This document shows positions 8,337 to 41,038 of a DNA stretch of 64,000 bases, piece after piece. Made by a program: the position numbers and the translations under genes. The number at the start of each line of letters is the position of its first letter. Position 1 is the stretch's first letter. Source of the stretch: a virus (Duplodnaviria; Heunggongvirae; Uroviricota; Caudoviricetes); the IMG/VR virus record IMGVR_UViG_3300049482_000044, positions 1-64,000 of that record, one strand, 5' to 3'. The notes under the pieces were generated by a model, which made no database searches, was not told where the DNA came from, and was given only the letters and a program-made list of their open reading frames with translations.

Positions 8337-11300
8337 ATGACTTTTGTTCACCTTCATAATCATTCACAGTATTCGCTGCTCGACGGACTTAATTCGCCTA
8401 CTGAGTTGGTCGCAGCCGCAAAGGATTTCGGGCAGCCTGGAATCAGCATCACCGACCACGGAACGCTGTCGGGCCATAGAGAATTGCAGCGCGCAGCCAA
8501 GGCTGCTGGGCTAAAGCCAGTGCTAGGTATCGAAGCCTATATCTCACCAACTGACCGTTTCGACAAGCGCTCCGTAAAAAAGCGGGATGACGATACGAGT
8601 CTCTACAACCACATTATCTTGCTGGCTAAGAACCAGACAGGTGTACGAAACATTCACAAACTTTCTGAGACTGCCTGGACCGAGGGTTATTACTACAAGC
8701 CACGTATCGACGCAGAACTATTGTCTGAGCACCGCGACGGAATCATTGTTCTGTCGGGCTGCCTTAATGGTCTGATCGCCAAGGCAATCGAGCGGGAGGA
8801 TATGGACGAAGCCCATAGGCTAACCAAGTGGTTCAAGGACGAGTTTGATCAGGACTTCTATATAGAGGTCCAGGCTCACAATCCAGCCACGACGAATGGC
8901 CCGCTGCTCGAACTGGCGGACTACTATGGCGTCAGGCCTGTCGCTACCTCTGACTGTCACTACGCTAAAGAGGAGGACGGCTGGATAGAGGAGGCACTGC
9001 TGATTCTATCAACAAACCCCAAGGCTAATCCAGAAGCCGACCTTGCTTATTCAAAGACCATTAAGGATATCTATGAGCGCTTTAACTACCTTTACCCCGA
9101 CCGCAAGATGTCCTTCCAGAACTTCAATCTATACATTCAGTCCCGTACGAGCATTTCTGATGACTTTGCAAAGCAGGGCGTAACACGCACAGACATCTTT
9201 GACAACACGATTCACGTCCTCGATAGTATCGGTGACTACGAATATAAGGAAAACCTGGCCGTACTACCGAAGCCGAAAAAGGATGCCGCCGCAGAACTAC
9301 GTAGGCTATGCATAGAGGGTCTAAAGCGTCTAGGTCTAGACAATAACGCCAAGTACCTAAAGCGTCTGGAAATCGAACTAGACATTATTAGCAAGAAAGA
9401 TTTCTCGTCGTACTTCCTGATCGTGGCTGACATGGTTAACTGGACCAAGGGCGAGGGTATACTGGTAGGACCGGGTCGAGGATCGTCTGCTGGCTCCCTA
9501 GTTTGCTATGCTCTCGATATCACTACCGTTGACCCGATTAAGCGCGGGCTGCTGTTCGCTCGATTCATTAACGAAGAGCGCAACGACTTTCCCGACATTG
9601 ACGTTGACATTGAGGGACGCAGGCGTAACGAGGTCAAGGACTATATGGTCAAGAAGTATAAGAACGTTGCTTCCGTGTCCACGTACTCCTACTTTGCTGA
9701 CAAGGGTGTTATTCGTGACGCGGCCCGAGTGTACGGGATTGATATCTCTGAGGTAAACAAGGCTCTTAAGCCAGTAGGGTCATTCGAAGAATTCGAGACA
9801 TCTATTAACACCCGCTCGTTCCGTGAAAAGCATCCTGAGGTTCTGGACCTGGCTAAGCATCTGCGCGGTAGAATTCGTGGGGCTGGAATGCACGCGGGTG
9901 GACTGGTTGTAGCCAACAAGCCTATTAACCTTTACGCACCAATCGAGACGCGTTCGTCTACTTCTGATGACGGCACGCGCATTCCCGTGGTGGCTGCTGA
10001 CAAGAAAGAAATCGCGCTCATCGGCTTGATCAAGATCGACGCCCTCGGTGTCAATACTCTCAGCGTCATTGCAGATGCACTTAGCCTCATTAAGACACAT
10101 AAGAATGTAGATGTAAAACTGCTGGACCTGACGCTTGACGACCCTGCTGTATTCCGTATGATTTCGGCGGGGTTCACCAAGGGTGTATTCCAGGCTGAGG
10201 CAAATCCTTCTACCAATCTGCTAGTTAAGATGGGCTGTGAGAACTTCGATACGCTCGTGGCTAGCAACGCCCTCGTGCGTCCTGGTGCTATGAATACAGT
10301 TGGTGCCTCGTATGTTGCGAGAAAGCAGGGTCGTGAGCAAGTCAAGACCCCCCACCCCATCCTAGACGAGATAACAAAGGAAACATTCGGCGTTATCATT
10401 TACCAGGAGCAGGTCATGCTTGCCTGTACCGAATTGGCTGGGTTTAGTTGGTCTGAGGCTGACGAGATTCGTAGCATCATCGGTAAAAAGGAAGATCCTC
10501 ACAAGTTCGATGCATTCAAGCAGCGCTGGCTCGATGGAGCGAGCAAGAATATTTCGATGGAAGATGCTGAGCAGTTGTGGCACGACTTCGAGGCTCACGC
10601 TGGGTACTCGTTCAACAAGTCTCACGCCGACGCTTACTCAACTGTGTCCTACTGGACTGCCTGGTTGAAGTATTACTACCCCCAGGAATTCATGACGGCC
10701 CTGCTGATTAATGAGAATGAGTCGGCTAAGGTGACTTCCTACCTTATCGAGGCGAAGCGCCTGGGAATTCGTGTGCTGCTTCCCCACGTCAACATGTCTG
10801 GCATGACTTATCAGATGGAGGGCGATGCTATCCGCATCGGGCTCAGCAATATCAAATACATGTCCGATAAGACTGTGCCATCGCTGATGCGACACCGACC
10901 GTACGACTCATACGCCGCGCTCATGGAGGTCGCGGGAACGAAGGGGTCTGGCGTTACCAAGCGTCTCATCGACGCACTGGACGCAATCGGTGGGGCCGTG
11001 TTTGACGACAACCCACTGACTGGTAATGAGACGTCAAATTTCTACGAGTATCTGAATATTCCCAAGTTTGATACGTCTAAGATCCCGCTGCCAGTTATGC
11101 TTAACGTGCGTACTGCTGACGAGTATGAAGAGGAAGGAACGTTCGCTATCCTAGCCATGATTCAGAATGTTAAAAAGGGCAAGGGCTGGGCGCTGCTGGA
11201 CTTTGTTGATGAAACGGGTCAGGCTTCTGTATTTACGTCGGACAAGGCTGATATAGAAAAGGGTCAGATGTATCTGATGCTTGTATCCGATAATCGGGTT

Positions 11301-11636
11301 AATGCATGGATCGCAGCCCACGAGGTTCCAGAAATGCTAGACAACCCATTCGTTAAGTATTTGAATGAGGGGGCGGTGCTAAAGCAGGGCCGCAAATACG
11401 TGGTAGACTTTACCCCGTACAAGACTAAGGCTGGCAAGCAGATGGCCTATGTCGTGCTCGGAGATGAGGACGGCGGCATGGAGAAGGTTATGGTATTCGA
11501 AGACCTTTACCGTAAGTCTCTCGGCGCTATGCAGGCAGGCAAGACACCAAAACTAAGTCTGGCTAGATTGAAGTCAGGCGCTCTATTTGTAAAGGATATT
11601 ATTGATGACAGAATCGCAAATCGACCAGCAAATTGA
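8337..11636 (+). CDS. dnaE: DNA polymerase III alpha subunit (DnaE-type, PHP domain)
   Basis: N-terminal PHP motif HLHNHSQYSLLDG; 1099 aa; fingers motif GKKEDPHKF and tail-end OB region; unmistakable C-family polymerase layout. Confidence 0.85.
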   Translation: MTFVHLHNHSQYSLLDGLNSPTELVAAAKDFGQPGISITDHGTLSGHRELQRAAKAAGLKPVLGIEAYISPTDRFDKRSVKKRDDDTSLYNHIILLAKNQTGVRNIHKLSETAWTEGYYYKPRIDAELLSEHRDGIIVLSGCLNGLIAKAIEREDMDEAHRLTKWFKDEFDQDFYIEVQAHNPATTNGPLLELADYYGVRPVATSDCHYAKEEDGWIEEALLILSTNPKANPEADLAYSKTIKDIYERFNYLYPDRKMSFQNFNLYIQSRTSISDDFAKQGVTRTDIFDNTIHVLDSIGDYEYKENLAVLPKPKKDAAAELRRLCIEGLKRLGLDNNAKYLKRLEIELDIISKKDFSSYFLIVADMVNWTKGEGILVGPGRGSSAGSLVCYALDITTVDPIKRGLLFARFINEERNDFPDIDVDIEGRRRNEVKDYMVKKYKNVASVSTYSYFADKGVIRDAARVYGIDISEVNKALKPVGSFEEFETSINTRSFREKHPEVLDLAKHLRGRIRGAGMHAGGLVVANKPINLYAPIETRSSTSDDGTRIPVVAADKKEIALIGLIKIDALGVNTLSVIADALSLIKTHKNVDVKLLDLTLDDPAVFRMISAGFTKGVFQAEANPSTNLLVKMGCENFDTLVASNALVRPGAMNTVGASYVARKQGREQVKTPHPILDEITKETFGVIIYQEQVMLACTELAGFSWSEADEIRSIIGKKEDPHKFDAFKQRWLDGASKNISMEDAEQLWHDFEAHAGYSFNKSHADAYSTVSYWTAWLKYYYPQEFMTALLINENESAKVTSYLIEAKRLGIRVLLPHVNMSGMTYQMEGDAIRIGLSNIKYMSDKTVPSLMRHRPYDSYAALMEVAGTKGSGVTKRLIDALDAIGGAVFDDNPLTGNETSNFYEYLNIPKFDTSKIPLPVMLNVRTADEYEEEGTFAILAMIQNVKKGKGWALLDFVDETGQASVFTSDKADIEKGQMYLMLVSDNRVNAWIAAHEVPEMLDNPFVKYLNEGAVLKQGRKYVVDFTPYKTKAGKQMAYVVLGDEDGGMEKVMVFEDLYRKSLGAMQAGKTPKLSLARLKSGALFVKDIIDDRIANRPAN

Positions 11637-18834: not shown

Positions 18835-19382
18835 TGGCCGCTGAATTAGAACTGGCCGATAAGTTCGAGACCATGAACAGGGTTGTCGAACAGAAACTCA
18901 CTGGGCAGAACCTGACACAGATCGCTCGCAACCTCGGCATAACTCGTGCCGAGGTAAACGAGTATTACGAGATGTTCAAGGTTATTGCCTCTGATTCAAG
19001 TAATATGAAAGCCCGCGCCCGTGAGGCGATGGCGACCGTTGATATTCACTATGATCGACTGATCCACGCCCTGTATAAGATCGTAGACGAAGCAGACGAT
19101 TGGCAGTCGATGGAGGGCGTCGATGCCAAGATGCTTAGCCAAAAGACTGGTGCTATTAGCAAGATAGCCGATCTAGAACTAAAGCGCGTTCAAATGCTAA
19201 AGGACGCGGGGCTGCTAGACGACCAGGAACTAGCACAGCAGGTTATCGACACAGAAAAGAAGCATGAGGTGCTTATCGGTATCTTGAAGGATGTTACGCA
19301 GCACTGTGATCGGTGTAGCAAGAAAGTAGCAGAGCGCCTGCGCGAAGTGAACAACGAGGCTGTGGCAGTAAAGTTTGTTTGA
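18834..19382 (+). CDS. putative terminase small subunit / HTH DNA-binding protein
   Basis: Immediately upstream of and overlapping terminase large; HTH-like LTQIARNLGITRAEVNEYYEMF. Confidence 0.35.
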   Translation: MAAELELADKFETMNRVVEQKLTGQNLTQIARNLGITRAEVNEYYEMFKVIASDSSNMKARAREAMATVDIHYDRLIHALYKIVDEADDWQSMEGVDAKMLSQKTGAISKIADLELKRVQMLKDAGLLDDQELAQQVIDTEKKHEVLIGILKDVTQHCDRCSKKVAERLREVNNEAVAVKFV

Positions 19383-22239
19383 GGATTTTCTAGACGTACT
19401 CAGCGGTGACGTGTTCGAGGAAATACCTGTCACCGTAGAAGAATTCGTCACGTCGCGGGACTTTGTCCGTCCAGGTGCCCCAGCATTCCCATCTCTGTCC
19501 GTGGATCAGATGCGTATGCTCAAAGCAATGACGCAGATTCTAGGCAGAGACACACTTATTCAGGTGTGGGGAGAGGGCATCGGGAAATCTCGGTGGGAAG
19601 AAACCTTCAACGAAATAATCCTCCAACTAGGTAAGGGTTGCCACGCTCCATACACCCCCGTATTTGATCCAAGTACCGGTAAGTGGAGCCGACTAGACTC
19701 ATTTGTAGGCGACGGGCTTGTTGCTTCTAGCGATGGGGCTAATCACTATGCAACAGAATCTTTTCGGGAGGGCTTCGGACAGATGGTGCGAGTCAAGACA
19801 TCTCTCGGACTTTCAGAGGATGTCTATGTCGGACATAAGTATCTTTCTCTTTCTAGGTCTGACTTCTACCACAGGTATAGAGGGATAGACCCGTCATTTG
19901 TATCGGTAGATAACCTCTTCGTGGGCGATAGGATTGCTGTCGCTGCTGGGTTTGACGTTTCCTCCCCGACCTATATGCAACCAGAAGTAGCCGAACTGAT
20001 AGGATTCTGGTTAGGCGATGGAATGCTTCCAACCGATGCAAACCCAATTATCAATATGGATTTCTGTTCAGACGAGTCTGAAAGTATCGCTAGGTATGAA
20101 GAACTATGTCTTATTATCGGAGACAGCCCCACAAAGACTATTCACCCAAACAAGAGTCTGACATTCTTTCGGCATGGAAGAAACTCCAAGGCGGTCCAGA
20201 TTGCTAAGGACAATGGTCTGTGGGGGATGCGTAGCCATACAAAATTAGTTCCCGACTGCGTACTTTCTTCAGATAACAAAACCATAGCGCTAGTTGTTGA
20301 AAAACTTTGGCAGACGGATGGCTGTGTCTATGCAAAAAACGGACTTACCGCAGAATATGTCTCTGTCTCTGAGCAATTGGCTACGGATGTACAGAGGATG
20401 CTACTACGCCTTGGTGTCCCATCAGCATTAAGATCTAGGACTCCAAAATCTAATTTTGCTAATGCCTCGCTAGCCTGGTACGTGACCGTTAGCAGTCAGG
20501 AGTGTGTGGGTGCATTTTTTGACAAAATCAAACTACTCGACCATAAGCGCCCCGAACTGACAGAAAAAACCGGGCGCACCTACAAGAGACTCCAAGACAA
20601 CTATTATTATGATCGAATCGCTTCTATAGAGCCAATTGGCGACGGGGAGTTTTGGACAAAAACTGTTCCAGATACTGGTAATTATGTTGGTAATGGAATG
20701 ATCTCTGCTAATTCCGGTAAGGACTTCATATCTACAGTCGCCGTAGCATATATAGTCTACGTACTGCTTTGTATGAAAGACCCGGCCAGTTACTATGGCA
20801 AGCCACAGGGCGACGCCATCGACATTCTTAATATTGCTATTAACGCCACCCAGGCAAAGAACGTTTTCTTCAAGGGGTTTAAGCAGCGCATCGACAACAA
20901 CCCCTGGTTCGATGGTAAATATGACGCCAAGGCAGATAACATAGAATTTGACAAGCATATTACTGTTCACTCTGGTCACTCAGAACGTGAGTCATGGGAG
21001 GGCTATAACCTGCTTGTTGTGATCCTTGACGAGATCTCCGGTTTTGCATTGGAGTCGGCTTCTGGGAATCTGAATGCCAAGACATCGGAACAGATCTATG
21101 ATATGTACTCGGCCTCTGTTGTGTCACGATTTCCTGACTACGGAAAGACAATTCTTCTATCATTCCCGCGCTACAAAGACGACTTCATCCAGCAGCGTTA
21201 TGCTGCGGTCGTGGCATCAAAGAACACCGTTATTCACACCGAGCGTCTTATAGTCAACCCCGACCTACCAGATGATTACGAGGGCAACTTCGTTGAATTC
21301 GAGTGGGAGGAAGATCATATTATTAGTTACCGAGAGCCTCGGGTATTTGCGCTAAAGAGGCCTTCCTGGATTATTAATCCTACCAAAAAGGTTACCGACT
21401 ATACCGGTCAGTTCTTCAAGAATATGACTGACGCGCTTATGCGTTTCGCCTGTATGCCTCCTGAGTCTATCGACGGTATGTTCAAGGACTCCGAGCGCGT
21501 TAATAATGCTTTCAGGCAGCCCCTGGCTATCGAAGAGGACGGCACGATAAACCATACATTGGTGGCGGACCCAGAGAAGATTTACTATATCCACGTCGAC
21601 CTTGCCCAGAAGATCGACCGATGTGCGGTATCTATGGCCCACGTAGACTCCTGGACTGCCGTTCGATACAAGGGTATTTCAGATAAGGTCGAGCCGGTGG
21701 TAGTCGTAGACTTTATTAGATACTGGACTCCTAGCGCAAGCAAGACGGTGGACTTTGCCGAGGTCCGTGACTTTATCGTGTCTATGTCTAAAAAGGGATT
21801 TAATATAGGCCTAGTAACATTTGACCGCTGGAACTCCGTCGAAATGATGGAGTATCTTGACGGAATGGGTCTGAAAACAGATAGACTCTCAGTGGCGAAG
21901 CCTCACTACACAGACCTTTTGATGGTTGTAAACGAGGGTCGTTGTCACGGTCCCGATATTGAACTGGTGCGTAAAGAACTAAAGCAGTTGCGAATCATCA
22001 AGGATAAGGTTGACCACCCCCGCTCCGGAAGCAAGGACTTGGCTGACGCCACCTGCGGTGCCGTGTTTAATGCCATCAGCCTCACACCTAAGGATAACTG
22101 GGGCGAGGTTGAGATTCAGACATATGACTCGTTGCGAGCATCCCGCCCCGTCGCGGTCGAGCCCCCAGAGGCCCAGCGCGCGACCGGACCCATACCAGAT
22201 GAACTTGCAGCATACCTTGACGGCATCACTGTTTTATAG
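19375..22239 (+). CDS. terL: terminase large subunit, intein-containing
   Basis: Exteins splice to ...QLGKG|SGKDF... forming a Walker A P-loop; Walker B LVVILDEISGF; C-terminal RNaseH-like nuclease region; 954 aa precursor. Confidence 0.8.
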   Translation: MFEDFLDVLSGDVFEEIPVTVEEFVTSRDFVRPGAPAFPSLSVDQMRMLKAMTQILGRDTLIQVWGEGIGKSRWEETFNEIILQLGKGCHAPYTPVFDPSTGKWSRLDSFVGDGLVASSDGANHYATESFREGFGQMVRVKTSLGLSEDVYVGHKYLSLSRSDFYHRYRGIDPSFVSVDNLFVGDRIAVAAGFDVSSPTYMQPEVAELIGFWLGDGMLPTDANPIINMDFCSDESESIARYEELCLIIGDSPTKTIHPNKSLTFFRHGRNSKAVQIAKDNGLWGMRSHTKLVPDCVLSSDNKTIALVVEKLWQTDGCVYAKNGLTAEYVSVSEQLATDVQRMLLRLGVPSALRSRTPKSNFANASLAWYVTVSSQECVGAFFDKIKLLDHKRPELTEKTGRTYKRLQDNYYYDRIASIEPIGDGEFWTKTVPDTGNYVGNGMISANSGKDFISTVAVAYIVYVLLCMKDPASYYGKPQGDAIDILNIAINATQAKNVFFKGFKQRIDNNPWFDGKYDAKADNIEFDKHITVHSGHSERESWEGYNLLVVILDEISGFALESASGNLNAKTSEQIYDMYSASVVSRFPDYGKTILLSFPRYKDDFIQQRYAAVVASKNTVIHTERLIVNPDLPDDYEGNFVEFEWEEDHIISYREPRVFALKRPSWIINPTKKVTDYTGQFFKNMTDALMRFACMPPESIDGMFKDSERVNNAFRQPLAIEEDGTINHTLVADPEKIYYIHVDLAQKIDRCAVSMAHVDSWTAVRYKGISDKVEPVVVVDFIRYWTPSASKTVDFAEVRDFIVSMSKKGFNIGLVTFDRWNSVEMMEYLDGMGLKTDRLSVAKPHYTDLLMVVNEGRCHGPDIELVRKELKQLRIIKDKVDHPRSGSKDLADATCGAVFNAISLTPKDNWGEVEIQTYDSLRASRPVAVEPPEAQRATGPIPDELAAYLDGITVL
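19639..20712 (+). mobile_element. intein (LAGLIDADG homing-endonuclease type) inside the terminase P-loop
   Basis: Begins at a Cys (CHAPYTPV...), has two LAGLIDADG-like blocks (LIGFWLGDGML; LVVEKLWQTDGCVY), ends ...GMISAN followed by Ser (+1 nucleophile). Confidence 0.7.
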
Positions 22240-29375: not shown

Positions 29376-30299
29376 ATGGGAACTCTTATTTTTATGAGCC
29401 TCGTCGCCGTACTTGGACTTGTTGGACTTCTCCTTCTCGTTCGCCCGCCCAAGTTCGAGGTCGATGATGCCGGGGATCGCTACACAGAAGCCTCGACTAA
29501 GTCGTTTACCAAGTGGGTTAGAGTATCAGGAGCAGTTGTTCTGGCCCTGTCTCTGCTTATTATCATCCCGTCCAGCATTAAGTCTATCGACGCTACCGAT
29601 GTAGGTGTCCCGATTACTCTCGGGCAGCCTGGTGACCCTCTCGGCCCCGGCCCGCACCTGACGCTCCCCTGGACTACCGTGTCCAGCCTTGACGTCAAGA
29701 CTCAGGTATTGAACATGGACGACGACAACGAAATCAAGACTGTCACGTCCGACCGAGTCCAGACGCCTGTTGACGTCTCGGTTTACTTTTCCGTAGACAA
29801 GGCTCGCGCCGCTACGCTACTGTTGACGGTGGGCGAGGATTACGTAGACAAGATCGTCCGTCCTCTCACCCGCTCCACTGTCTATGACAAGGGAAGCACT
29901 TATTCCGCTGACAACATTCAGACTCAGCGGGATGCCTATGAGGATTCCGTAAAGGCTGCGCTGCTCCCCATCCTTGCTGCTCGTGGTATTATTCTGGAAA
30001 AGATCGAGATTCGTAAGATCCAGTTGCCCGACGCTATTTTACAGAACGCTCAGGCAAAGATCAACTCTGAGGAAATCCAGAAGCGTACTAAGATCGACGC
30101 TGAAACCAAGGTGATCGAAGCAACGGCGCAGGCTAAGGCCAATGAGATCCTTGCTGACTCGATCAAGCAGAATAAGGATGTCTGTCAACTGCTGCTCGTC
30201 CAGGGTCTTTCTACTGGAAAGATCACCGGCCCGCTGTACGTTAACCCCTGCGGGACCGACTCTGGAACCAGTCCGCTCTTGACGAAGTCTGTCGGCTAA
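29376..30299 (+). CDS. SPFH/band-7 (stomatin/prohibitin-like) membrane protein
   Basis: N-terminal TM; central SPFH-like region followed by a long coiled-coil alpha-helical tail (EIRKIQLPDAILQNAQAKINSEEIQKRTKIDAETKVIEATAQAKANEIL). Confidence 0.55.
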   Translation: MGTLIFMSLVAVLGLVGLLLLVRPPKFEVDDAGDRYTEASTKSFTKWVRVSGAVVLALSLLIIIPSSIKSIDATDVGVPITLGQPGDPLGPGPHLTLPWTTVSSLDVKTQVLNMDDDNEIKTVTSDRVQTPVDVSVYFSVDKARAATLLLTVGEDYVDKIVRPLTRSTVYDKGSTYSADNIQTQRDAYEDSVKAALLPILAARGIILEKIEIRKIQLPDAILQNAQAKINSEEIQKRTKIDAETKVIEATAQAKANEILADSIKQNKDVCQLLLVQGLSTGKITGPLYVNPCGTDSGTSPLLTKSVG

Positions 30300-30520: not shown

Positions 30521-31321
30521 ATGATAGACTACTCACAAGATCCACCTCTAACTAGGAGACTAATGACTTACCCTGAGTTCGAACTTATCCCCGCCCCGCT
30601 TGATGCCAAGCCTGAGGATATTGAGAAGATCGTTTCTGCAAACACCGCGATCCTTGACTATCGTGAAAAGGTCCGCGAGGCCGGTGATGATCATCTGCTT
30701 GACGACATTGAGCGCCAAAAGGCTGTCATGGATCTTGACAAGCAGCGTCTAGAACTCGACCGCTTGCAGCACTTCCTTGCGCGGGATGCAGATACGTACC
30801 GCTACAAGAACGGCATCTTCACACTCTACGACTATGTAGACGACTATTCCGTCAAGCAGGTCATCAGTGACATTACCGTGTGGCACAGCAATACTCCGAA
30901 GGGCACACCGCTGCAACTGAATATCAACAGTTATGGTGGGTCTGTGACTGACGGGTTCGCCCTGTTCGACACCCTCCGCTTTGTTGCAGAGGACGGTGAG
31001 CGCAAGATCAAGACCGTAAGCCTTGGCATCACCGCCTCGATGGGCGGGGTTCTATTGCAGGCTGGCGACGAGCGCGTTATGACTCCTTCCAGCATCCTGC
31101 TGATCCACGAAATCAGTTACAGCGCCCGTGGCTCGGTATCGAGCCACAAGGACGGCAGGGAAATGACTGACATTCTTTCTGACCGTATCATCGAGGTATT
31201 CGGTGAGCGTGCGCTGATCAGCGAGGAAGAGTTCAAAAAGAACTGGGACCGTCGTGACTGGTGGCTGTCTGCTAAGGATGCCCTGAGCAACGGTTTCTGT
31301 GACCGCGTAGCCTTTAACTGA
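30521..31321 (+). CDS. ClpP/NfeD-like serine protease (S14/S49 class)
   Basis: INSYGGSVTDGFALFDTLRF and GITASMGGVLL follow the ClpP GxSxxG oxyanion and active-site Ser pattern; N-terminal coiled coil. Confidence 0.5.
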   Translation: MIDYSQDPPLTRRLMTYPEFELIPAPLDAKPEDIEKIVSANTAILDYREKVREAGDDHLLDDIERQKAVMDLDKQRLELDRLQHFLARDADTYRYKNGIFTLYDYVDDYSVKQVISDITVWHSNTPKGTPLQLNINSYGGSVTDGFALFDTLRFVAEDGERKIKTVSLGITASMGGVLLQAGDERVMTPSSILLIHEISYSARGSVSSHKDGREMTDILSDRIIEVFGERALISEEEFKKNWDRRDWWLSAKDALSNGFCDRVAFN

Positions 31322-31547: not shown

Positions 31548-32105
31548 ATTTAACTGATGGAAGGTGGGGCGCTGCTCTTGAAAGCCAGCGTACGCTTAAA
31601 TGACAGAGGCTAAGTATCTGCGCCCACTATCCATTGACACACCCGCTTCCAACTGATAGGATTCAGACATGAAGGTTAAGAACAAGGACATTTATTCCAC
31701 CAACCAGGCGTGGCTAGACACCATCGCGGAAGAGTACGAATCTGCTGGATTCTCAGTGGTCAGAGGGCAGGGCAAACTTACTGTCCTTGTACTCACTCCG
31801 AAGAAAGAAAAGCCGAGCAAGGATGACAGGAAGGGCCAGAAGCGTGAGCCAAAGCGAGCCGGTGCCCGCATGGATGACCGGGCCAAGAATTGATCTTGAC
31901 GATGTAGAGTTGGGTCTAGGCAGTAGGTATTACCACGAAATTGCCAAGGCGCACGCTCTAATTGACATAGCACGTAGTCTTCGTGTTATAATTGAACAGA
32001 ACGCTAAGGAATAGCCACCCGAAAGTTGGCGTCGGGGCCTGTTTGCTAAACAGAGTGGTCGCAAGGCCGTGCAGGATCATCCCCTGTCTATTCCGCGCAA
32101 GTCAG

Positions 32106-32437
32106 GGGGGCGAAAGGTAATCGATTTCGTTTCGGAAGTATGAAGTGGCAGCGGGCGCGGTTACCCTAAGTAACCAACAACAAAATAAACGACGAAACAA
32201 ACCAGATTGTTGCAGCAGCAATGCTCAACATCGACGCCGAGTACGAGGCACTTTGTGCCGAGTACGCTCTCATCACTGTATGAGTGGCCGGGTGTCAGCG
32301 ACCTAGGAACAGAACGCTGAAAACCGCCTGAGAGGGCACCCTGTAATGCCAGCAACAAAGAATAACCGGCAGGATGCATCGCTGTATCTGTGACATATAA
32401 TGAACGAAAGACGCGGGTTCGAATCCCGCCGCCTCCA
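32106..32437 (+). ncRNA. ssrA: tmRNA (ssrA-like), about 332 nt
   Basis: 5-prime GGGGGCG pairs with 3-prime CGCCTCC-A; 3-prime end GACGCGGGTTCGAATCCCGCCGCCTCCACC is near-identical in form to bacterial tmRNA TLD; internal AAACGACGAAAC resume-region homolog; tag ORF ends ...AEYALITV-TGA at 32281. Confidence 0.65.
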
Positions 32438-32451
32438 CCTAAGGAGCAATA

Positions 32452-32706
32452 ATGCTTTTAGTAACAACTGAGTCTGGCACATACTACACCATTGACGAAG
32501 AAAACCACTGGGTTAAGCGCAGTTCTGAGCGACCGTTAAAGTGGATCAGCGACGGAGTAAGACCAGAAGATATCGACGTAGATGGACGCCGTCCTTACGA
32601 TGCGCTCTACCCGCTTGATATCGGCGGGTCCGTGTACGCTCTATACAGGGATGGTACATTTTCTATGTCCACCGCCATTGTAAGCATCGAGACTATTGGA
32701 GAATAA
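32452..32706 (+). CDS. hypothetical protein
   Basis: 84-aa ORF starting right after the tmRNA, SD AAGGAG. Confidence 0.4.
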   Translation: MLLVTTESGTYYTIDEENHWVKRSSERPLKWISDGVRPEDIDVDGRRPYDALYPLDIGGSVYALYRDGTFSMSTAIVSIETIGE

Positions 32707-33513: not shown

Positions 33514-33683
33514 CTTGGGCAGGGCGGGCTACAGGATGGACTGTATAACCCGTCGATACGAACAGGATGTTCCACCTGGACCCATAAACGGAATATGCCA
33601 CTATAACATAAAAGTAATGTACCTGTCTTGTAAACAGGAAAAGAGGGGGCAGTACCTTCTTGTGGCTCGCAATAACTAAATAT

Positions 33684-40248: not shown

Positions 40249-40667
40249 ACCAGTTGAAAACTAAATAGCAATAAAACAGGCATGGCTGATATGTTGGGGT
40301 AACCCAATGAAAGGCGGGTGACAACCGCCACCAGAAATGGTAATCCATGCAATCCGAAACTGCAACGAGTTCCATACCAGGGGACCGGGGCATCGTAAGT
40401 CAGGCGGGAAACGGCAAACGTGCTTATCCCAGGTTGTCACGCAGACAACCAGCCACAAACGACGAGCGATGCTGGCAGGAAGGAAGGATCATAAGTCCGA
40501 GGCGTCAACCTAGGGCGGGGTCCATGAAGCCGAAAAAGTGGTCTGGCGAGGTCATAAGTATCGACGGAGATTGAGAGTACCTGACAAGGAAATCATATCG
40601 GAGGAGTGAAGCATTCTGTAGGCCAAAATCCTACGGACCTTCTAGGGAAGCGCTTCTTCTGTCAAAA

Positions 40668-40739
40668 GCAACTATAGGTCAATGGTAGACCGATTGTATT
40701 TGGAACAATATGTTGCAGGTTCGAATCCTGCTGGTTATT
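40668..40739 (+). tRNA. tRNA-like, anticodon UUG (Gln-type), weak acceptor
   Basis: D GGTC-AATGGTA-GACC and T-arm GCAGG-TTCGAAT-CCTGC are canonical; acceptor GCAACTA/TGGTTAT has a mismatch. Confidence 0.4.
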
Positions 40740-41038
40740 TCAAAAGCGAAAGACTTCCCTTGTTCTTGTTCGAAAGCGCCTTAATACTTGGCCCTCCGGG
40801 GAACCAAGTTCATCCCGAGCCGCAAGCGGAGGATGGTTCATAGCCAGTAATGCAGTCAAGAGGCTTGCTACCTCTAGACGAAGTGAAAACTGTGGAGTGG
40901 AACAGGAATATAAAGAGTGGTATGCTATACATACCAGGCGTGATAGTTAGCATGGGGACATGCTGGAAACGATGGGAATCAATAATCCGTCTAGAGACTA
41001 TCAAGGCAAGCGAGTATTCTCATCGCCCGCCAACTTTA

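Follow-up and report, generated by a model that had tools for sequence, protein, structure and literature searches.

Introduction

The one-piece transfer-messenger RNA (tmRNA) of Escherichia coli, SsrA, contains a tRNA-like domain with a G3·U70 wobble, which is the identity element for alanyl-tRNA synthetase, together with helix 2, the pseudoknot PK1, a U-A frame determinant and a stop codon in helix 5. In E. coli, U85 and A86 lie upstream of the resume codon, and A86 is the main determinant of the tag frame (PMC2481249). Nearly all known tags end in a hydrophobic residue, and among the phages, the Bxz1 group, Bacillus phage G and DS6A have been listed as carrying ssrA (Hudson et al. 2014, PMC4131195). 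The tag of one actinobacterial host, Streptomyces coelicolor, ends in ...AFALAA (PMC2635970), while the genome announcement of the BE1 cluster of Streptomyces phages reports one tmRNA per phage and does not comment on the tag (PMC5764925). Here, we analyzed the ssrA gene of a 64,000-nucleotide stretch of Caudoviricetes DNA (IMG/VR record IMGVR_UViG_3300049482_000044, positions 1 to 64,000), referred to below as the window.

Compared with E. coli SsrA, the window tmRNA presents all of the elements named above. It differs in having a tag that is three times longer, a resume codon that does not encode alanine, no LAA-COOH end, two extra hairpins inside the tag frame and a shorter pseudoknot region. 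Phage tmRNAs with atypical tags are already known, and the window thus offers a further example. What is new here is a tag family found only in phages, with a frozen core, a covarying hairpin within the reading frame and a probable relation to the Bxz1 tag. Although phage tmRNAs have been catalogued for twenty years, analyses of their tags were not found in the literature that we searched, which likewise held no paper on the NIDAEYEALCAEYAL tag family and no match to the peptide string AEYEALCAEYAL.

Results and Discussion

Identification of the tmRNA gene

The tmRNA (ssrA) gene was placed at 32106-32439 on the plus strand by ARAGORN, which predicted the tag DETNQIVAAAMLNIDAEYEALCAEYALITV*. 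The Rfam model RF00023 matched 32106-32440 with 66.9 bits (gathering threshold, 47; E = 6.6e-24) and over model positions 1-374, i.e., the full model, a match far above chance. The first strand of the acceptor stem, GGGGGCG (32106..32112, +), pairs over 7 bp with CGCCTCC at 32430-32436, and the T-arm GCGGG-TTCGAAT-CCCGC of the tRNA-like domain lies at 32413..32429 (+). Both had been pointed out in an earlier, sequence-only reading of this DNA and are present, as is the internal AAACGACGAAAC that the same reading aligned with the resume region. In the tRNA-like domain, the loop of the T-arm is of the GGUUCGAAUCC type, and the discriminator is an A, with CC(A) after it. As the acceptor 3' strand is followed by an encoded ACC and then T, the terminal A of CCA has to be added post-transcriptionally.

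The sequence-only reading had proposed a phage tmRNA with a long tag that ends in ...YALITV rather than ...YALAA. This description holds, as two independent detectors, covariation and 14 relatives all agree with it; both ARAGORN and the covariance model placed the same frame, with no short canonical tag. The window element is thus a real one-piece phage tmRNA. Its closest relative, the tmRNA of locus L026, is 92% identical, while those of L018, L019 and L021 are 73-76% identical. It should be noted that ARAGORN overlooked the tmRNAs of L010/L011/L017 and L021, which were recovered by Rfam or by direct reading, and that a megablast search of the locus against phage records yielded no match.

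RNA architecture and covariation

Base pairs were tabulated from a G-INS-i alignment of the window with five relatives (L026, L018, L019, L021 and L010) and analyzed with RNAalifold; default MAFFT alignments were off by one base at the 5' end and were not used for the pair tables. The G3·U70 wobble is invariant in all six aligned sequences, while other pairs of the acceptor stem covary (pair 5:327, GC/TA/AT/CG/TG; pair 6:326, CG/AT), as does one pair of the T-arm (CG/AT). The 5' strands of helix 2 (32125..32152, +) pair with partners at approximately 32381-32409 according to both RNAalifold and the pair table, with compensatory changes in H2a (pairs 20:304 to 23:301) and in H2c (pairs 45:278 to 47:276).

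Pseudoknot PK1 occupies 32153..32175 (+), with stem 1 formed by GGG/CCC and stem 2 by GGTTAC/GTAACC. In stem 2, which is also found in the Rfam alignment, four of the six pairs covary (e.g., GGUUAC/GUAACC versus UGAUUGG/CCAGUCA in L021). As a whole knot, PK1 is supported but not proven. In the PK2 region, the hairpin TCAGCG-(ACCTAGGAACAGAA)-CGCTGA (32295..32320, +) covaries in all six of its pairs among six clade members, and its loop motif UAGGAACAGAA is family-wide, being present even in the Streptomyces phage Wakanda. The covariation that the sequence-only reading named as a check is thus found, with compensatory changes in helix 1, helix 2, PK1 stem 2 and the PK2 hairpin.

The stop codon is carried by the helix 5 hairpin at 32269..32286 (+), which can be drawn as CUCAU-CACUGU-AUGAG or, alternatively, as CACU-GUAUG-AGUG. 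As read from the sequences, a stop-bearing hairpin is found at helix 5 in each relative, in differing registers, with the arms GUGAC/GUCAC in phage BillNye, GUAAC/GUUAC in Byblos and GUUAC/GUAAC in L013. Approximately 105 nt separate helix 5 from the return strand of helix 2, suggesting fewer than three knots in this region. A closing helix (GCCGG/CCGGC) and stems for PK3 (GGCA/UGCC and CCUG/CAGG) were considered but are candidates only, as they show no covariation and are broken in L019 and L010.

Resume codon and tag frame

The frame-setting AUAAAC, an A-rich single-stranded leader, and the resume codon GAC (Asp, 32191-32193) lie at 32185..32193 (+), followed by a tag reading frame of 30 codons and a TGA stop (32191..32283, +). 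ARAGORN and the Rfam alignment agree on GAC at 32191, and an ungapped codon alignment sets the AUAAAC|GAC of the window against the AUAAAU|GCA of its relatives, with L026 likewise resuming at GAC (AUAAAU|GAC). Such a start puts U and A at positions -5 and -4, which correspond to U85 and A86 of E. coli. The sequence-only reading had therefore chosen the correct frame and the correct in-frame TGA (32281-32283), although it began one codon too early, at AAC. Its tag of about 31 residues becomes 30 encoded residues, or 31 when the alanine charged on the tmRNA is counted.

The AUAAAY motif stands immediately 5' of the frame in 15 of 15 family members. The distance from this motif to the conserved core of the tag falls into six length classes (1, 2, 3, 8, 10 and 12 codons), all of which are in frame. 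Such frame-preserving length classes, together with the synonymous-only changes in the core described below, argue that the region is read as codons.

A tag family found only in phages

Using blastn, the tag-coding region of the window was matched to the annotated tmRNAs of BillNye and Circinus (Wilnyevirus), and of Byblos, Ankus and DekoNeimoidia (Stanwilliamsviridae), the tags of which read ADNIDAEYEALCAEYALVTV or ANNIDAEYEALCAEYALVTV. The tag was unfamiliar to the sequence-only reading, yet it is not an orphan, as its family had been present in the GenBank records of BillNye and Circinus as unremarked features; the BillNye-type records name the feature simply 'tmRNA' and give no tag. These tmRNAs share with that of the window the tag core, the loop motif of the PK2 hairpin, a syntenic place approximately 23.7 kb after dnaE and the same small gene alongside. 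In contrast, the window tag contains 10 extra codons that form an added hairpin, resumes at GAC (Asp) rather than at GCN (Ala) and ends in ITV rather than VTV, while the RNA measures 335 nt, as compared to approximately 296 nt. Nucleotide similarity between the window and these tmRNAs is limited to the tag region, at about 77%.

To collect further members, we searched with a back-translated pattern for EYEALCAEYA. In IMG/VR, this pattern matched BillNye only, while metagenomes yielded 11 loci, and no match was found in one genome each of 185,579 bacterial and archaeal species. The NIDAEYEALCAEYAL tag family is thus phage-only. Other members were retrieved independently of the peptide, either by blastn (BillNye and Byblos) or through the neighboring phosphoesterase gene. 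The latter route led to three independent loci, namely L026 (tag DETNQIVEAAMLNIDAEYEALCAEYALSNV), L019/L020 (ANEDAVVAEAMANIDAEYEALCAEYALATV) and L021 (ANIDALMSNIDAEYEALCAEYALTSV), all of which carry the core and bring the metagenomic total to 14. We accordingly define the family by the core NIDAEYEALCAEYAL followed by three residues that end in V, A or L, around the hairpin GUAC-GA-GGCRC-UUU-GYGCC-GA-GUAC. The window tag matches all 15 core residues, as well as the core hairpin. A tblastn search of phages with the 30-residue tag returned no match, not even BillNye, and is uninformative, as the query is short and of low complexity.

Most other phages of the same family present a different picture, BillNye, Circinus and Byblos being in the minority. 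In 74 Streptomyces phage records, the tmRNAs carry short, host-like tags (ANSNFALAA, ANSKNASAYALAA, ANSKFAFALAA and ANSRNAFALAA). Wakanda, Muntaha and the Samistivirus/BE1-cluster phages have the same tRNA island as the window, and in Wakanda, which belongs to the subfamily of BillNye, the position of the tmRNA and the adjoining small gene are also as in the window. Their tags differ, however, being short and ending in ALAA, like the ...AFALAA of Streptomyces. As sister phages bear canonical ALAA tags at the syntenic position, the NIDAEYEALCAEYAL tag is a lineage-specific replacement. No tmRNA was found in Daubenski at 79-97 kb; its relatives have a tmRNA further along the genome.

Conservation of the core as peptide and as RNA

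The 15-codon core (32227..32271, +) is identical at the peptide level in 13 of 14 distinct relatives. When the 14 distinct cores were compared, variation was seen at 12 third, two first and one second codon positions, with all of the first- and second-position changes coming from a single sequence, L010. Among the six sequences whose retrieval did not depend on the tag, the nine variable core columns are all third codon positions, an outcome with a probability of about 5e-5 under no codon bias. Likewise, the five core codons that lie outside the search pattern show only synonymous changes in 13 of the 14 distinct relatives. Judged by this confinement of change to third positions, the core is under strong purifying selection as a peptide.

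At the same time, the core folds. The hairpin GUAC-GA-GGCAC-UUU-GUGCC-GA-GUAC (32241..32265, +), identified by folding and by covariation, has a predicted energy of -13.5 kcal/mol (z = -4.3), which was reached by none of 200 shuffled sequences, and 99.2% of the cells in its alignment are paired. At pair 24:30, seven sequences have A-U and the other seven G-C, without a mismatch. The covariation score of 0.201 compares with 0.131 ± 0.022 in shuffles, none of 500 of which reached it, and all slid controls scored lower. The switch between A-U and G-C is not an effect of third-position GC content, as it opposes the usage in neighboring codons: in nearby codons, BillNye has ATT, GAT and GCA, as opposed to GCG/TGC in the stem, and the window has ATC, GAC and GCC, as opposed to GCA/TGT in the stem. 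Taken together, the codon and pairing patterns indicate that both peptide and RNA-hairpin constraints act on the core.

The part of the tag that precedes the core behaves differently. Here, a second hairpin is predicted (GUUG-C-AGCA / GCAA / UGCU-CAAC; 32209..32229, +), and L018 has a counterpart, GUUGCUCA-GGCAA-UGAGCAAC, at the same place. In this pair of sequences, the structure is kept and the peptide is not (AAAML versus AQAMS), and the N-terminal extensions as a whole are poorly conserved (ETNQIVAAAML, NIDNEVAQAMS, NEDAVVAEAMA and NIDALMS). The extensions of L018 and L021 resemble a partly duplicated NIDAE unit. The 10-codon extension in the window clade may therefore be mainly an added RNA hairpin that is incidentally translated.

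Probable relation to the Bxz1 tag

The sequence-only reading had mentioned an atypical tmRNA of some large mycobacteriophages, and did not recognize the window tag. The two tags are probably related, as the C-terminal half of the window tag resembles that of Bxz1, a Mycobacterium phage of cluster C1. The Bxz1 tag was back-translated into a search pattern, which matched two Bxz1-like IMG/VR contigs, and on both of these, ARAGORN called the tag ATDTDATVTDAEIEAFFAEEAAALV. Like that of the window, this tag is long and atypical, and over its last 16 residues, an ungapped alignment to DAEYEALCAEYALITV shows nine of 16 identities. Against composition-preserving shuffles, the best local alignment of the Bxz1 tag has a p of approximately 0.006 with the window tag and of 0.0006 with that of BillNye, while the score of the C-anchored alignment was reached by none of 5000 shuffles. 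A hairpin is also predicted within the Bxz1 tag frame.

Other properties set the two apart. The Bxz1 tmRNA is 434 nt long, Bxz1 is a Mycobacterium myovirus, and nucleotide similarity to the window is undetectable outside the tRNA-like domain. The small gene linked to the tmRNA in the window and its relatives was not found in the 7.7 kb of Bxz1-like sequence examined. Given the similarity of the peptides, common descent of the window-type and Bxz1 tags is likely but not proven.

The Bxz1 tmRNA directly follows tRNA-Arg(cct), as do those of BillNye and Wakanda, suggesting that the tRNA-Arg(cct)-tmRNA pair moved as one module. This pair is found at L033 5397-5917, L034 870-1391, L001 2831-3210 and L005 19217-19570. 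The tRNA array of L033, a Bxz1-like contig, also includes an ARAGORN tRNA at 1054-1125 with the anticodon CTA (labelled tRNA-Pyl), which would read amber codons.

Function of the tmRNA and its tag

The window contains 24 tRNA genes according to ARAGORN, and we consider it likely, on the basis of the comparisons presented above, that the element is a functional phage-encoded one-piece tmRNA located in a phage tRNA island. Following the established trans-translation pathway, the tmRNA would be excised from a polycistronic transcript, its 3' CCA would be completed, and host alanyl-tRNA synthetase would add alanine by virtue of the G3·U70 wobble. Host SmpB and EF-Tu would then bring the charged tmRNA to ribosomes stalled on broken mRNAs during infection, and translation would resume at GAC (32191), such that alanine and 30 further residues are added and the ribosome is freed at UGA. 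In phages with the variant tag, rescued products would thus end in the C-terminal peptide ...NIDAEYEALCAEYALVTV. No SmpB domain was found in 30 window open reading frames (ORFs) tested, including all of those of 150-210 aa, which fits the use of host SmpB, the host partner being assumed.

Some considerations weigh against this interpretation and should be borne in mind. Stem 1 of PK1 comprises just 3 bp and shows no covariation, and pseudoknots beyond the PK2 hairpin are not established, as the candidate helices are invariant or inconsistent. Those metagenomic members that were found with the back-translated pattern are conditioned on the peptide. Finally, pairing in the hairpin extends to the first and second positions of core codons, such that RNA constraint could explain part of the peptide conservation.

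As to what the tag does, the core is probably helical and amphipathic, as its hydrophobic residues I, Y, L and Y are spaced like one face of a helix. By analogy to the SspB adaptor-binding part of the E. coli tag, the invariant core may serve as a recognition site for a protein partner. The C-terminus, which is variable but aliphatic (V, A or L), would then be a generic and probably weaker degradation signal, rather than a specific anti-ClpX device.

The possibility raised in the sequence-only reading, namely that the tag serves protease evasion or redirection, was also considered. Having lost LAA-COOH, rescued products would escape ClpXP and be spared or sent elsewhere, such as to a phage ClpP-like enzyme. 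The window tag indeed ends in ITV and not in LAA, whereas the host-type tag of Streptomyces ends in AFALAA (PMC2635970), and since sister phages retain ...ALAA, the change is derived and lineage-specific. Moreover, a ClpP-family gene lies 0.8 kb upstream of the tmRNA, an arrangement that is kept in L018, L019 and L021, where the distance is 0.8-1.5 kb. Nonetheless, conservation is lowest in the terminal tripeptide (ITV, SNV, LGV, ATV, TSV, VTV, VTL, AVA, AAA and ISA) and resides in the interior of the tag, and L026, despite its 92% identical tmRNA, ends in SNV. All members end in V, A or L, which is the usual hydrophobic ending of tags (PMC4131195), ...YALITV included. The complete genome of Byblos, which bears the same tag core, furthermore lacks homologues of the ClpP-like gene and of the adjoining SPFH gene, as does Wakanda 55-100 kb. 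E. coli reporters ending in AAV, ASV or LVA still undergo degradation, albeit at a slower rate. With a variable terminus and some members ending in AAA or AVA, ClpXP evasion is weakened, and we regard it as rather unlikely.

According to another explanation, the core is kept because its hairpin acts at the RNA level, for example in processing or in binding a protein, with the peptide being a by-product. Such a constraint would fit a stem that is both stable and covarying, in which each third codon position pairs with another third position, as well as an N-terminal extension in which the hairpin, but not the peptide, is conserved. Yet the codons for N, I, D and A before the stem and for A and L after it, all of which lie outside the hairpin, also vary solely by synonymous substitutions in 13 of 14 distinct relatives, no compensatory double changes at first or second codon positions were seen in the 14 distinct sequences, and the frame-preserving indels speak for a region read as codons. 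Conservation for the RNA alone is therefore improbable.

It is still harder to see the RNA as a decoy that titrates host SmpB or alanyl-tRNA synthetase and so shuts down host trans-translation, as was proposed for the molecule of mycobacteriophage DS6A that consists only of a tRNA-like domain, molecules of this type being known to inhibit tmRNA (Hudson et al. 2014, PMC4131195). While the failure to find an SmpB gene among the ORFs tested would agree with such a role, a full mRNA-like domain, a maintained frame, a resume context, a stop codon and selection at the peptide level would all be superfluous for a decoy, which makes this a very remote prospect. That the gene is a decaying, functionless relic of a captured host ssrA can practically be dismissed, since, even though a degenerate tRNA-Ser-like sequence next to it indicates that some RNA genes of the island do decay, compensatory changes and an invariant core persist across phages with DnaE proteins just ~53% identical, and the tag pattern occurs in no bacterial genome searched.

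Returning to a functional tmRNA with a meaningful tag, one actinophage lineage has exchanged a host-like ...ALAA tag for a peptide that was then frozen across very divergent phages, which argues that the content written on rescued proteins matters to the phage, beyond the freeing of ribosomes. In its most far-reaching form, this would amount to a phage-private branch of trans-translation, in which an amphipathic-helix tag is read by a dedicated phage or host factor instead of following the ClpX LAA-COOH route, possibly with participation of the protein encoded at 31669-31893, and in which unrelated actinophages, such as Bxz1, would share the device through a DAE-x-EA-xx-AE-x-A...V motif. We treat this proposal as speculative and doubtful. 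Were it true, tagged proteins would meet another fate in infection (sequestration, delayed turnover or use as a signal); should the tag be an ordinary, weaker degradation signal, it becomes a matter of routine annotation. The cultured Streptomyces phages BillNye, Circinus and Byblos carry the variant core and Wakanda and the BE1 cluster carry canonical tags, which makes the question directly accessible to experiment.

Neighboring genes

A small gene of 74 aa (31669..31893, +) lies 0.2 kb upstream of the tmRNA. Its homologues adjoin the tmRNA in BillNye, Byblos, Wakanda, L015, L018, L019 and L021, and in Byblos, BillNye and Wakanda, the small gene directly follows the tmRNA. No other protein-coding gene in this part of the tRNA island is common to the window, Byblos, BillNye and Wakanda. 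The family of the small gene comprises 49 representatives at 50% identity. The protein was modelled confidently by AlphaFold2 (pLDDT 80) as a beta-alpha-beta-beta fold with a basic disordered tail. No Pfam or PHROGs family was found for it, nor any significant fold match in the PDB (best E = 0.29). Linkage to the tmRNA is frequent but not universal (L009 and L010 are exceptions), and occurs with canonical-tag tmRNAs, too. The small protein could act in association with the tmRNA or the ribosome.

The small gene is preceded by a promoter-like site at 31634-31662 (+), which reads TTGACA-17-TAGGAT and has an extended TG, and a Shine-Dalgarno sequence, AAGGAG, together with the ATG of the next ORF are found within 13 nt of the tmRNA 3' end (32441-32454, +). 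With such signals at the two ends, a single transcript may cover the small gene, a tRNA-Ser relic, the tmRNA and the ORFs downstream. The relic, a degenerate sequence derived from tRNA-Ser(gct) (32008..32095, +), is directly upstream of the tmRNA and aligns to an intact tRNA-Ser(gct) at the same place in L021 and L018, with the T-loop reading GGATCATCCCC versus GGTTCGATCCC. It was called neither by ARAGORN nor by the Rfam tRNA model at E <= 1, and the same altered variant is present in L026.

Further upstream lie the ClpP-family protease gene (30521-31321, +; Pfam, 9.8e-27), with an N-terminal extension of approximately 90 residues, and the adjoining SPFH/Band-7 gene (29376-30299, +), a pairing that recalls the stomatin/NfeD pairs of bacteria. 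PHROGs puts the ClpP-like gene among head-maturation proteases, and the annotated 'peptidases' of Wakanda are unrelated to it. Since both genes are conserved only in the window clade and are absent from Byblos, we rejected the ClpP-like protease as the general dedicated protease of the tag.

Phage affiliation and genome context

The DnaE-like polymerase of the window (8337-11636) shares ~53% identity with its counterparts in the Stanwilliamsviridae that infect Streptomyces (BillNye, Circinus, Wakanda, Byblos and the BE1 cluster). Homologues of about fifty window ORFs occur in the same order in Byblos, and the G+C content of approximately 49% is like that of those phages. By these comparisons, the window represents a new, distant relative of the Stanwilliamsviridae, and its host is probably an actinobacterium. 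A 954-residue ORF (19375-22239, +), which is homologous to the terminase region of Byblos and Wakanda over about half of its length and contains LAGLIDADG and intein-splicing domains, is probably an intein-interrupted terminase large subunit.

Several other RNA elements were noted. A GOLLD RNA (RF02032) lies at 40599-41026 (+; 201.6 bits versus a gathering threshold of 150), with a tRNA-Gln(ttg) embedded in its variable region (40667-40741), and a second GOLLD (183 bits) is found in the related metagenomic contig L015 (positions 1-392), 3.4 kb upstream of the L015 tmRNA. At 33597-33667 (+), the Rfam tRNA model matched with 43.8 bits, with no call by ARAGORN. Near the phosphoesterase gene of the window, no gene for a Ro60/TROVE + vWA protein was seen, whereas in distant relatives, such a gene adjoins the phosphoesterase homologue (L022 2819-4423, L024 3990-5609, L025 1853-3406 and L028 2296-3843).

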